Positions 3,506-9,506 of a DNA stretch of 64,000 bases are shown one piece after another. A model generated the notes under the pieces. The model did not search any database, was not told the origin of the DNA, and worked only from the letters and a program-made list of their open reading frames with translations. Each line of letters starts with the position of its first letter. Position 1 is the stretch's first letter. The position numbers and the translations under genes are program-made. The stretch spans positions 1-64,000 of the forward strand of contig CAVSMF010000005.1 of NCBI GenBank assembly GCA_963728975.1, written 5' to 3'. This DNA comes from an uncultured Verrucomicrobiae bacterium (GTDB lineage: Bacteria > Verrucomicrobiota > Verrucomicrobiia > Chthoniobacterales > UBA10450).

Positions 3506-3524
3506 CTAATCGAAACGTTACGCA

Positions 3525-4022
3525 ATGCGACCATTTACGAAAATTGCTCTGAAGGCGGTTCTGATCGTTGTCGCAGCTTTTGCGGTTCTCGTCGTTATCG
3601 TTCGCTCGCTTTTCATTGTCTCGCCGATGAGGACTGATTCTATGGAGCCACTCATCGCGACTACCGATATTGTCGTCGCTACGAAGCTGTTTAGCGCTTC
3701 TTCACTTCGCAGCGGAGATTTGGTTGTCGCGGACATTCCCGCTCCCAGAGGAGGTCGGGTTCTTACAGTTCGCAAGATTCAGCAACAGCCCGACACTCCG
3801 AGTGACAGCTTTTACCTGCAAGCGGCCAACAGCAATGGCGCTGACTCGCGGCTTTTTGGCCCACTACCAGCGTCAGCCATTCGTGCCAAAGTCATTTGGA
3901 TTTATCGTAGGAGGCCTAACCAATCGCTGGAGCTAACCGCCACCCGTCGCGCATTCAGCCTGTTCTCTGTCTTCCGTCCTCTGTCCTCCGATTGTATGCT
4001 CGCCCTCGGTGGCGGTAGCTGA
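3525..4022 (+). CDS. cassette ORF, S26/S24-type signal-peptidase-I-like serine peptidase with N-terminal TM; the ORF reads through its own attC
   Basis: N-terminal TM followed by an S-MEP motif (RTDSMEPLI). GDLVV...P..GGRVLTVRKI resembles the SPase I / LexA-fold Ser-Lys dyad region. The frame has no stop in R'', so the ORF extends about 35 codons into the attC (biological end uncertain). Confidence 0.5.
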   Translation: MRPFTKIALKAVLIVVAAFAVLVVIVRSLFIVSPMRTDSMEPLIATTDIVVATKLFSASSLRSGDLVVADIPAPRGGRVLTVRKIQQQPDTPSDSFYLQAANSNGADSRLFGPLPASAIRAKVIWIYRRRPNQSLELTATRRAFSLFSVFRPLSSDCMLALGGGS

Positions 4023-4039
4023 GCTTTTTCTCGTTAGAC
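3914..4039 (+). other. attC site (R'' GCCTAAC 3914-3920; R' GTTAGAC 4033-4039)
   Basis: gagctaaccgccacccgtcgcg ... cggtggcggtagctgagctttttctcgttagac. Confidence 0.65.
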
Positions 4040-4048
4040 GCTGAAGAA

Positions 4049-4414
4049 ATGAACGAAACGTTCGTTGTCACAGTCTTTGGAGCCGCACTGTCCGGCCTGA
4101 CATTTGTGGTGTACCGCCACCCCGACGGTTACAGGCGCATCTTTTTGGTGGTGCTTCCAGTATGCCTCTTTCTAGCGATCCTGATTTGCTCTGATAACCT
4201 TGGGTACGGCCTCGCGATGATTACCTCGCTGCACGACGACTTGCAGCGCAATCCGAATGATCCATTGAACGCACACTCATTTGCGATCCAGCAGCTGTAT
4301 GAGAAGCGGGAACTTATTAAGACTTTTCTTATGTATTTGATGCCTGCCATCGGCTACCTGATATTTTTGCGTTTCTTACCCGACATATTGGGGCTGCGTC
4401 GCCAACGCATCTAA
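4049..4414 (+). CDS. cassette ORF, integral membrane protein (121 aa)
   Basis: Multiple hydrophobic helices. Stop TAA 4412-4414 lies in R'' ATCTAACA. Confidence 0.45.
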   Translation: MNETFVVTVFGAALSGLTFVVYRHPDGYRRIFLVVLPVCLFLAILICSDNLGYGLAMITSLHDDLQRNPNDPLNAHSFAIQQLYEKRELIKTFLMYLMPAIGYLIFLRFLPDILGLRRQRI

Positions 4415-4533
4415 CAAAACGATGCAGCTAACGCCTTCCCGTTGAGCGTTCACTTTTTAAAATGATTAGTGTATCTTCCATTCCAGTTCAGCCTCGCCCT
4501 CGGAAGGTGTAGCTGATCTTATTCTCGTTAGAC
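4409..4533 (+). other. attC site (R'' ATCTAAC 4409-4415; R' GTTAGAC 4527-4533)
   Basis: gatgcagctaacgccttcc ... ggaaggtgtagctgatcttattctcgttagac. Confidence 0.65.
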
Positions 4534-4627
4534 GCAAATCCCACTGGTGCCTTGATGACCGTCCCAATTGCTTCCCAATCCCAGCTCATAGAGGCGCTTC
4601 TGACGCTAGCAGCAGTACCTCCTTCAA

Positions 4628-4903
4628 GTGACACTTCTCGGCATCGCGATTCGGACCTACCGTTCGCAGCGTACAGAACCAGTGCGTCTTTTGATGCTGG
4701 CCTGCATTTGCTATGTTGTCCCGCACGTCTTTGAGTTTCTTGTGTATTTTGTCCCTGGATTTCTGCATGCCGATAAAATTCGGCTCGGTTACTTTCGTCC
4801 GATTTGGTGGATGCAGTCTCTGGATCAGAGCTCGTTGATTCTGTTTTTGCTGTTTATGATATGGGCACTGAGAGCTTTTACGACAAAGGGGAATCAACAG
4901 TAG
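4628..4903 (+). CDS. cassette ORF, membrane protein (91 aa); an alternative overlapping ORF 4552-4734 exists
   Basis: Hydrophobic profile. Lies inside the cassette 4534-4913. Confidence 0.3.
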   Translation: MTLLGIAIRTYRSQRTEPVRLLMLACICYVVPHVFEFLVYFVPGFLHADKIRLGYFRPIWWMQSLDQSSLILFLLFMIWALRAFTTKGNQQ

Positions 4904-4913
4904 TGCACGCTGC

Positions 4914-5040
4914 GTCTAACCGGGCGATGCAGCCAACCGCTCCAATGCGCCACGCGTTCCATGCAAACTTCAATTAGTGTGATTCAGTCAGCTGCCAGTT
5001 GCGCCGCCCAGAGCGGTGGCTGATCTTATTCTCGTTAGGC
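4914..5040 (+). other. attC site (R'' GTCTAAC 4914-4920; R' GTTAGGC 5034-5040)
   Basis: gatgcagccaaccgctcc ... gagcggtggctgatcttattctcgttaggc; near-identical to the attC at 8337-8463. Confidence 0.65.
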
Positions 5041-5069
5041 GACAAAAACCAGCACCTCGGACTCCAATA

Positions 5070-5291
5070 ATGAACACATTGACGATAATCCAACCTCAAG
5101 AAAACGGAGCTGTACGCTTGAGCGATCAAAAGACATATCTCGTTTTGAAAGAGCATCAGCCGATCGCGGCCCGATGGCAGGTAGGACAGCTAGTTCGCGT
5201 TACACAAGTGCCCTTGCAACACGACGAATTCGACTTACGTCCCGCAGACGACTCGACGGATGCTGCACGAGCAAAACGCTTTGAGACGTAG
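5070..5291 (+). CDS. cassette ORF, hypothetical protein (73 aa), first gene of a two-gene cassette
   Basis: ATG 30 bp after R'. No domain recognised. Confidence 0.3.
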   Translation: MNTLTIIQPQENGAVRLSDQKTYLVLKEHQPIAARWQVGQLVRVTQVPLQHDEFDLRPADDSTDAARAKRFET

Positions 5292-7827: not shown

Positions 7828-7844
7828 TTGCTTTCACACCGATC

Positions 7845-7968
7845 ATCTAACCCATCGATGCAGCTAACGCCTTCCCGTACCGCGTTCACATTTCATCGTG
7901 ATTAGTGTATTCTTCATTCCAGTTCAGTCTCGCTCCGGAAGGCGTAGCTGATCTTATTCTCGTTAGGT
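7845..7968 (+). other. attC site (R'' ATCTAAC 7845-7851; R' GTTAGGT 7962-7968)
   Basis: gatgcagctaacgccttcc ... ggaaggcgtagctgatcttattctcgttaggt. Confidence 0.65.
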
Positions 7969-7970
7969 CT

Positions 7971-8342
7971 ATGAGGCAGATCGTGCCGATAATCAGTGCC
8001 CTTGTTATTACCCACAGCGTCGTTGCAGGACAGCAATCCGCGACGCCCCCGCGGTATGGGCCCAATGGGTGGGTCCCGTTGTATTGCCCGAAGCCCGAGT
8101 ATCCTGAATGGGCGCGAGCCAGGCATCTGGAAGGGAGCGGAGTATTCCTTCTGCGGCTTCGGCCAAATGGCAGTGTCAAATCGGTCGAAGTCGCAGAGAG
8201 TACAGGGCACGCCGTATTAGACCGGAGCTGTGTTCTCACATTTCGAGAGTGGCGGTTCCAACCGGGATTTGCTAAGAGTATCCCGCAAGTGAAGATCCCG
8301 ATCAGATTCACTATGGATGGCGCACGCTACGGAGGGACCTAA
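7971..8342 (+). CDS. TonB C-terminal domain protein (cassette ORF)
   Basis: N-terminal anchor plus YPEWARARHLEGSGVFLLRLRPNGSVKSVEVAESTGHAVLDRSCVLTFREWRFQP, which matches the TonB_C fold signature. Stop TAA lies inside R''. Confidence 0.55.
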   Translation: MRQIVPIISALVITHSVVAGQQSATPPRYGPNGWVPLYCPKPEYPEWARARHLEGSGVFLLRLRPNGSVKSVEVAESTGHAVLDRSCVLTFREWRFQPGFAKSIPQVKIPIRFTMDGARYGGT

Positions 8343-8463
8343 CCGGGCGATGCAGCCAACCGCTCCAATGCGCCACGCGTTCCATGCAAACTTCAATTAG
8401 TGTGATTCACTCAGCTGCCAGTTGCGTCTCCCAGAGCGGTGGCTGATCTTGTTCTCGTTAGAT
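8337..8463 (+). other. attC site (R'' ACCTAAC 8337-8343; R' GTTAGAT 8457-8463)
   Basis: Near-identical to the attC at 4914-5040. Confidence 0.65.
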
Positions 8464-8845
8464 GCTAAAGGCCGTTATCTCGCTGATAGCATTGGTTTGC
8501 GCCGGGTGCCATCGCCCGACTTCAAAGGAAAAGCTGCTGATCGGAACATGGTCATCGCCTCTAACCGAAGAGATTGTAAATGGCACACTTCAATCCGTCG
8601 GCAGCGACGTGATGGAAGTTACCTTCCGGGCCGACCACAAAGAGTTTTGGCGTGTGCCGGGGCAGGACGAGCATGCCGCCGCTCGGTGGCACCTCGAAGG
8701 CGACTATCTCGTCTTTACGATGGAAACTAAGTCATTTGTCGGTCCACCCGGCATTACGCGACGGGAGAGAATCACAAAACTCACTTCAGATGAGCTTGTT
8801 TTCAGAGAAGGTAGTATAGAAGGTCGTTGGAAACGCGTACGATGA
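8462..8845 (+). CDS. cassette ORF, putative lipoprotein (127 aa)
   Basis: N-terminal MLKAVISLIALVCAGC is lipobox-like. Confidence 0.45.
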   Translation: MLKAVISLIALVCAGCHRPTSKEKLLIGTWSSPLTEEIVNGTLQSVGSDVMEVTFRADHKEFWRVPGQDEHAAARWHLEGDYLVFTMETKSFVGPPGITRRERITKLTSDELVFREGSIEGRWKRVR

Positions 8846-8848
8846 CGC

Positions 8849-8972
8849 ATCTAACTGGGCGATGCAGCTAACACCTTCCCGTTCAACGTTCGCTTTTGAA
8901 ATGATTAGTGTATCCTCCATTGCAGTTCAGCCTCGCCTTCGGAAGGCGTAGCTCATCTTGTTCTCGTTAGGC
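8849..8972 (+). other. attC site (R'' ATCTAAC 8849-8855; R' GTTAGGC 8966-8972)
   Basis: ~85% identical to the attC at 3382-3505. Confidence 0.65.
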
Positions 8973-8991
8973 CTAATCGAAACGTTACGCA

Positions 8992-9504
8992 ATGCGACCA
9001 TTTACGAAAATTGCTCTGAAGGCGGTTCTGATTGTTGTCGCAGCTTTTGCGGTTCTCGTCGTTGTCGTTCGCTCGCTTTTCATTGTCTCGCCCATGAGGA
9101 CTGATTCTATGGAGCCACTCATCGCGACTACCGATATTGTCGTCGCTACGAAGCTGTTTAGCGCTTCTTCACTTCGCAGCGGAGATTTGGTTGTCGCGGA
9201 CATTCCCGCTCCCAGAGGAGGTCGGGTTCTTACAGTTCGCAAGATTCAGCAACAGCCCGACACTCCGAGTGACAGCTTTTACCTGCAAGCGGCCAACAGC
9301 AATGGCGCTGACTCGCGTCTTTTTGGCCCACTACCAGCGTCAGCCATTCGTGCCAAAGTCATTTGGATTTATCGTAGGAGGCCTAACCAATCGCTGGAGC
9401 TAACCGCCACCCGTCGCGCATTCAGCCTGTTCTCTGTCTTCCGTCCTCTGTCCTCCGATTGTATGCTCGCCCTCGGTGGCGGTAGCTCAGCTTTTTCTCG
9501 TTAG
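8992..9504 (+). CDS. duplicate of the S26/S24-like peptidase cassette ORF (reads through the attC)
   Basis: Nearly identical (2-3 substitutions) to 3525-4022, including the upstream leader after R'. Confidence 0.5.
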   Translation: MRPFTKIALKAVLIVVAAFAVLVVVVRSLFIVSPMRTDSMEPLIATTDIVVATKLFSASSLRSGDLVVADIPAPRGGRVLTVRKIQQQPDTPSDSFYLQAANSNGADSRLFGPLPASAIRAKVIWIYRRRPNQSLELTATRRAFSLFSVFRPLSSDCMLALGGGSSAFSR

Positions 9505-9506
9505 GC
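9381..9506 (+). other. attC site (R'' GCCTAAC 9381-9387; R' GTTAGGC 9500-9506); duplicate of the attC at 3914-4039
   Basis: Identical to the attC at 3914-4039 except for one substitution plus the downstream core base. Confidence 0.65.

Follow-up and report, generated by a model that had tools for sequence, protein, structure and literature searches.

Duplication of a single S26-like peptidase cassette in a chromosomal integron array of an uncultured Verrucomicrobiae bacterium

The duplicated cassette and its boundaries

The stretch of DNA analysed here, referred to as the window, covers 64,000 nucleotides of an uncultured Verrucomicrobiae bacterium (contig CAVSMF010000005.1, positions 1 to 64,000, assembly GCA_963728975.1). 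Its left end is occupied by an integron cassette array, in which one cassette, encoding a putative S26-like peptidase in an open reading frame (ORF), is present in two copies, named A and B, which stand in different surroundings (Table 1). The two form a single near-identical block, 3494-4037 against 8961-9504, as seen both with an ungapped comparison at an offset of 5467 and with a MAFFT alignment. The features of the array and of the two copies are listed with their positions in the window; the vertical bar in a core such as G|TT marks the crossover point, and cassettes are referred to by number with the prefix c.

Table 1. Features of the integron cassette array and of the duplicated cassette in the window
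Feature	Position	Strand	Remarks
Integron cassette array, at least 23 cassettes	1-17325	+	Delimited from R' cores, attC families and a table of R''/R' pairs; cut by the left window edge, chromosomal genes to the right
attC of the cassette upstream of copy A	3382-3505	+	R'' GCCTAAC 3382-3388, R' GTTAGGC 3499-3505; final 6 nt belong to copy A
Cassette copy A	3500-4033	+	534 bp, TT of G|TTAGGC to G of G|TTAGAC; recurs in the same context in contig L003 with 3 differences
ORF A	3525-4022	+	165 amino acids, S26-like membrane-anchored peptidase; final ~37 codons run through attC
attC of copy A	3914-4039	+	R'' GCCTAAC 3914-3920, R' GTTAGAC 4033-4039; bottom-strand fold
Six unrelated cassettes between the copies	4034-8966	+	Include the 2579-bp unit 5035-7613 with an IS110-family transposase ORF
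attC of the cassette upstream of copy B	8849-8972	+	R'' ATCTAAC, R' GTTAGGC 8966-8972
Cassette copy B	8967-9500	+	534 bp; contig L002 has it with 1 difference, ahead of the same downstream neighbours
ORF B	8992-9504	+	170 amino acids; I25V, stop lost (TGA to TCA), ends at the TAG of the R' core
attC of copy B	9381-9506	+	R'' GCCTAAC, R' GTTAGGC (9500), perfect inverted pair

With its limits set at the TT of G|TTAGGC, the upstream core, and at the G of its own core, the cassette proper differs between the two copies by five substitutions in 534 bp (3566, 3597, 3626, 3851 and 4021), which corresponds to 99.06% identity. An initial annotation of this DNA had described an exact duplication with only two or three substitutions; the duplication itself is real, but it is not exact to that degree. 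The same annotation had placed the start of the cassette at 3506, where the present boundary is 3500, and its coordinates for the ORF and the attC of the first copy were correct.

To the left of the cassette, mismatches between the copies start again at 3493, 3487, 3480 and 3471, and the identical run begins 6 nt ahead of G|TT. The motif TCTCGTTAG is invariant across every attC of the array, and because of this the left breakpoint can be placed only within 3494-3500. This range appears consistent with a crossover at G|TT, without resolving it to the base, and the earlier statement that identity sets in exactly after the upstream GTT thus agrees with the crossover point while overstating the sharpness of the edge. 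On the right side the copies first differ at 4038, which is base five past the crossover, and the two loci are unrelated from 4041; here the identity does end at the core of the cassette's own attC, as had been proposed. The alignment showed no identity extending well beyond the attC cores, and so no segmental duplication.

The attCs that precede the two copies (3382-3499 and 8849-8966) differ by 19 mismatches in 118 nt and are ~84% identical, close to the ~85% given previously. In a BLAST comparison of the array with itself, the attC upstream of copy A matched 4411-4531 at 89% and 390-513 at 84%, with the identity background of that attC subfamily lying at 82-90%. The similarity of the two upstream attCs is therefore ordinary subfamily background, since other members match equally well or better, and a special relatedness between them was rejected. 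In the same comparison, repeats of the array other than the duplicated cassette were attC-sized only, which puts the duplicate far beyond chance, and no DNA similarity was found between the flanks of copies A and B outside the attCs.

Nor was any protein similarity found between the upstream neighbours of the copies (98 and 127 amino acids) or between their downstream neighbours (121 and 119 amino acids), and a duplication of two cassettes was rejected because these neighbouring proteins are unrelated. In its 3' half the R' core is not the same for the two copies (GTTAGAC with copy A, GTTAGGC with copy B); this half tracks the downstream cassette, to which it would belong. The duplicated unit is exactly one cassette. 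A unit of one cassette bounded at G|TT, flanks that are unrelated and an R' 3' half that follows the downstream cassette are the marks of a copy-and-paste event, and all are present here.

The array, its attC sites and the peptidase

TCTCGTTAGRY, the pattern of the R' cores, is matched 24 times between 68 and 17325, on the + strand in every case, where 2.35 matches would be expected by chance. Inverted pairs of 7-nt core sites, R'' (RYYYAAC) and R' (GTTRRRY), are present, and 22 attCs were tabulated; pairwise identities among attCs are 72-97% and fall into subfamilies. Most attCs are 119-131 nt in length, with four of 204-235 nt. The long sites (10466-10669, 11651-11856, 13879-14104 and 14762-14996, against ~125 nt elsewhere) are partly alike internally, 10470-10645 matching 14766-14949 at 80%. 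To the right of 17.3 kb there are genes for RecQ, for 2-oxoglutarate dehydrogenase components of the sucA/sucB/lpd type, for transporters (including ABC transporters) and for a Ser/Thr kinase. The array is chromosomal, exceeds about 20 cassettes and has attCs that are related to one another, and so shows the features of a sedentary chromosomal integron, the integrase aside.

The bottom strand of the copy-B attC is predicted to fold, as a single strand, into a structure of -24.0 kcal/mol (z = -2.8) in which an unpaired spacer separates an R box from a bulged L stem. A consensus of 14 bottom-strand attCs (RNAalifold) has 24 pairs, 10 of which show compensatory changes. Its R box has 7 bp, its unpaired spacer is asymmetric and its L stem is bulged, the consensus having three bulged positions. 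The predicted single-strand folds of the attCs of both copies agree with this consensus and thus have the form of an attC hairpin, an imperfect fold that is better conserved among such sites than their sequence. No matches were obtained in the window with Rfam (gathering threshold), which is without an attC family, or with a tRNA scan.

The cassette 5' ends carry a further trace of the recombination. In 18 of 22 cases, both duplicate copies included, the opening bases of the cassette are a perfect complement of the R'' in its own attC; for the R'' of the abutting attC this holds in only 4 of 22. The former count argues that these units were once circles joined at G|TT, and the crossover point is in consequence well founded in this array.

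It is worth mentioning that two other features of the region lie between the copies. The 2.6-kb cassette unit at 5035-7613 holds, on the minus strand, an ORF for an IS110-family transposase (Pfam Transposase_20, 6596-7492) of 298 amino acids, compared with 322-366 amino acids in related contigs; this insertion sequence (IS) seems to adjoin the start of the attC of its unit. The related contig L002 has the element twice, and the peptidase cassette comes immediately after one of these copies. Furthermore, the attCs of the unrelated cassettes c10 and c13 (4914-5040 and 8337-8463) are 96.7% identical, far over the background of the array, and the TonB_C-like ORF of c13 is found with two other attC variants in related contigs (the c13 regions of L003, L002 and L004). 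The lineage of the window seems to have replaced its c13 attC with, or converted it to, the c10 type, an outcome that a canonical G|TT crossover would not give.

The product of the duplicated cassette matches Pfam PF10502 (Peptidase_S26) with 40.5 bits against a cutoff of 22.9, in the N-terminal part of the profile only. In an alignment of the two window ORFs with 14 relatives, the serine of the SMxP motif (S39) is conserved in 14 of 16 sequences and K84 in 15 of 16; the profile match is thus accompanied by a Ser/Lys dyad, with catalysis being a prediction from sequence. Against TIGR02227 (the LepB equivalog of signal peptidase I) the protein scores 35.3 bits, below the cutoff of 47, and its scores for TraF and the nickel superoxide dismutase maturation protease are likewise under the NCBIfam cut-offs. 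The label of the peptidase should accordingly be S26-like, and not LepB. With type I signal peptidases and TraF-like S26 enzymes it shares an N-terminal membrane anchor, the SMxP serine, the lysine and the PF10502 match; it differs from them in a far shorter core (~128 amino acids), in being cassette-borne and in a tail of 37-42 amino acids encoded by the attC.

There are 19 database relatives, all but one of which (P0001) have 116-142 amino acids, mostly 127-133, and the homologs finish at 128-130 amino acids with a stop codon just before R''. The ORFs of the window read 37-42 codons through the attC (3909-4022 and 9376-9504) because the stop before R'' is missing. Four of the differences between the copies are coding, three being synonymous and one causing I25V. 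The fifth, at 4021, changes TCA to TGA in copy A; ORF B, in which this stop is removed, is five codons longer. The G at 4021 also disrupts a covarying stem pair of the attC (alignment columns 19/125), and this one substitution, which is private to copy A, therefore both makes the TGA stop and breaks the pair. In a further allele, carried by contig L006, S39L removes the presumed catalytic serine; this allele could be a decaying or neofunctionalised paralog.

Contexts, origin and age of the duplicate

The cassette is also present outside the window. The exact copy-B protein was found in two ENA metagenome contigs, and no exact product records were found for the copy-A protein or for that of c1 (window 92-394). 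A look-up with the c2 protein returned only L003 and a 3.6-kb contig, and an invariant 30-mer taken from the cassette had no match in a scan of JGI metagenomes. When genome contigs were scanned with the peptidase, only one relative was obtained, at 70% identity, in a metagenome-assembled genome (MAG) of Verrucomicrobiae. More distant homologs (66-74% amino-acid identity), found in a Verrucomicrobiae MAG and among JGI metagenome contigs, are likewise borne on cassettes whose start is G|TTAGGC.

Contig L003 is collinear with window 1-8957. It runs from c1 to the attC of c14, with the cassette in the surroundings of copy A, and ends 10 nt ahead of the junction of c14 with copy B. Contig L002 is collinear with window 8948-16662, with copy B followed by c16-c22, and has its cassette directly after the IS110-bearing c11, without c12-c14. 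Contig L006 (ERZ25039533 contig_38987, cassette 30-542), from the same sample as L003 and with an adjacent contig number, begins 4 nt before the cassette (window 8963), leaving a gap of 5 nt to the end of L003 (window 8957); its allele has 9-12 nucleotide differences from the others, S39L among them. The cassette is thus found behind three upstream neighbours, namely c7 (window and L003), c14 (window) and the IS-bearing c11 (L002), and the junction is always the same. These upstream contexts in independent metagenome contigs show that the cassette moves as a unit and count against an assembly artefact. Cassette order differs among the related arrays. In addition, an otherwise unrelated array (L004, ERZ25039539 contig_61104) possesses c13 (99.5%) and c14 (97.6%) at 3794-4207 and 9953-10406, c14 being its final cassette, followed by an HflX-like GTPase gene; these shared cassettes are evidence of exchange between arrays or genomes.

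Integrase-mediated excision and reinsertion within the array, with the donor copy kept, best explains the duplicate, with a probability of roughly 0.7. This explanation draws on the unit being one cassette, the unrelated flanks, the background level of similarity of the upstream attCs, the R'' footprint, the canonical attC folds, the several contexts in other assemblies and the cassette nature of the homologs. It upholds the earlier proposal of site-specific excision and reinsertion in place of slippage, for which the one-cassette unit, its flanks, the upstream attCs and the differing R' 3' halves all speak. The integrase IntI would excise the peptidase cassette with its own attC as a circle, by recombination of attC with attC through their folded bottom strands at the G|TT of the R' cores, and the circle would carry the junction ...CTTTTTCTCG|TTAGGCCTAATCG... 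Replication would then resolve the recombination junction, with one daughter chromosome retaining the donor copy, and reinsertion of the circle elsewhere in the same array would give rise to the duplicate. Recombination of the folded bottom strand only, resolved by replication so that the donor copy is kept, has been described as 'copy and paste' (Loot et al. 2012, PMC3458562; Souque et al. 2021, PMC8024014).

In V. cholerae, insertion takes place overwhelmingly at attI, and insertion at internal attCs is seen only with overexpressed integrase (PMC8191803). Copy A, which is the attI-proximal one, was probably inserted at attI and then pushed inward by later acquisitions, and is probably the newer copy; a direct insertion at an internal attC is less likely. 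We infer the involvement of an integrase, the replicative route and the age order of the copies from this set of features. The single-cassette repeat, the G|TTRRRY boundaries and the unrelated flanks are shared with duplicated cassettes of sedentary chromosomal integrons, such as the Vibrio cholerae superintegron, and with the copy-and-paste products of mobile integrons (PMC3458562, PMC8024014), and superintegron-type arrays also share the long, unidirectional chromosomal array with related attCs. However, in the copy-and-paste experiments the new copy was at attI, in first position, whereas the two copies of the window are located well inside the visible array and show a divergence of 0.94%. 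The present host also differs from the Vibrio cholerae and mobile-integron cases in being an uncultured soil bacterium with no integrase visible in the window.

Several observations weigh against excision and reinsertion as described. No integrase, attI or Pc was seen within the 64-kb window, the array running off its left edge, where intI and attI would be expected, and an upstream walk from the window for intI, attI and Pc reached none of them. Neither copy is first in the visible window, copy A being at least the eighth cassette, and this calls for many later insertions or for a rare insertion of attC into attC. The left junction of c14 with copy B is directly seen in the window only. Finally, the five differences, together with alleles that are not cleanly split into an A type and a B type, leave room for two acquisitions or for gene conversion.

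As regards the integrase itself, no tyrosine recombinase (Phage_integrase-type) was found among the tested window ORFs of at least 200 amino acids, and no integrase was found in contig L001 within 10 kb of its homologous cassette. The window is formally an attC cluster without a nearby intI, as in the CALIN (attC clusters that have no integron integrase) elements of Cury et al. (2016, PMC4889954), 12-23% of which contain IS, as this array does. It differs from a CALIN in that the window edge cuts the array on the side where intI and attI are expected, so the absence of an integrase is not established. The initial annotation had concluded from the duplication that an integrase is, or recently was, active, and this conclusion is partly supported. 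Continuing turnover of cassettes is indicated by the differing cassette order of related arrays and not by the duplication itself. The case for a recent integrase is weaker because none was seen in the window, because the copies have diverged by more than the 0-0.7% seen for most cassettes between strains, and because their contexts are shared between strains.

The age of the duplication can be approached by comparing window 1-16662 with L003 and L002. Most cassettes have diverged by 0-0.7% and a few (c5, c6, c11, c13 and the unit 14991-16555) by 2-6%, a patchiness that suggests cassette-level replacement of alleles on a nearly identical backbone. For the peptidase cassette, copy A differs from its L003 counterpart by 0.56% and copy B from its L002 counterpart by 0.19%, against the higher figure between the two copies. 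In L003 the cassette has the same surroundings as copy A, and L002 matches the window across the right junction of copy B. Since independent assemblies thus share both contexts, the duplicate arose before these strains diverged from one another and is no fresh event.

A different history, in which two slightly different alleles were acquired independently, each by an integrase, from a cassette pool of the community, is unlikely, though it fares best among the alternatives. Several alleles do circulate, the five cassette copies compared having 13 variable sites and L006 being the most divergent, and the presence of c13 and c14 in the L004 array attests to exchange between arrays. Three of the five differences between A and B are private to copy A of the window, one is common to copy B and L006, and only 3851 follows position, with G in the A context and T in the B context. 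On the other hand, the A-context allele of L003 and the B-context allele of L002 are one site apart, and a single ancestral cassette copied in one lineage is the simplest account of this; with so few sites, later conversion between the copies would also be compatible. Two acquisitions would, moreover, still require the same integrase chemistry, altering the history and not the mechanism.

RecA-dependent homologous recombination or gene conversion between attCs, either as an unequal crossover or as a segmental duplication followed by losses, is very improbable. The upstream attCs do offer 84% identity over ~120 nt, and the c13 attC, so close to that of c10 and different in related contigs, looks like the outcome of a conversion-like event within this array. 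However, past the right end of the cassette TTAG is all that the two loci have in common, which provides no homology to resolve a conversion tract or crossover, and on this ground both unequal crossover and gene conversion were rejected. An unequal crossover between the attCs of c7 and c14 would also duplicate the c8-c14 block in tandem, which is not seen.

Marginally less probable again is an assembly artefact, that is, a chimeric contig in which copies from different strains, or from one locus, were wrongly joined. In its favour, the window seems to derive from a metagenome assembly, the junction of c14 with copy B is seen in the window only, and related contigs break at the repeat, L003 stopping at window position 8957 and L006 starting at 8963. 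Against this, two of the five differing sites recur in independent assemblies (3626 C in L006 and 3851 T in L002), L003 independently supports the order from c1 through copy A to the c14 attC, and L002 does so for copy B and c16-c22. The 5-nt gap between the end of L003 and the start of L006 would fit a sample in which the cassette likewise comes after c14, and assemblers usually collapse repeats and rarely create them. Replication slippage or simple tandem duplication is effectively refuted by the anatomy of the duplication, the copies being 5467 bp apart with six unrelated cassettes between them and having recombination cores as their boundaries.

Wider meaning and other repeats of the window

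The peptidase cassette provides a clean instance of the already described duplication of integron cassettes in large chromosomal arrays. It gives a base-level example of cassette duplication at G|TT in an environmental chromosomal integron, outside the Vibrio and Pseudomonas models, and supports the generality of the known model of integron shuffling while leaving the model unchanged. In practical terms, such a repeat is able to break or confuse metagenome assemblies. The analysis also points out a small family of cassette-borne S26-like peptidases of putative function.

A more far-reaching reading, which is doubtful, would see the peptidase cassette as unusually mobile and repeatedly self-copying in natural populations of this uncultured soil bacterium, with the contigs as a snapshot of shuffling, attC conversion and paralog decay. 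In three assemblies the cassette is found in at least three array contexts, perhaps four, and the copy of L006 has lost the presumed catalytic serine (S39L); the apparent attC replacement on a neighbouring cassette would belong to the same picture. If repeated self-copying were true, these contigs would offer a snapshot of a non-proteobacterial chromosomal integron, which could even include insertion at an internal attC instead of attI.

Other repeats are present in the window beyond the array. A 49-nt unit forms tandem arrays at 53724-54165 (9.0 copies) and 54721-54978 (5.2 copies) with 93% matches; it includes the palindrome AACCGGCC-ACA-GGCCGGTT and also occurs singly at 21824-21867 and 59821-59864. 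Between an amino-acid permease gene and a LamB/YcsF-family gene, at 28612-29154, a 72-nt unit is repeated in tandem (7.6 copies, 98% identity), and an intergenic 46-nt direct repeat (38093-38138 and 38189-38234, 96% identical) has its two copies 96 bp apart.

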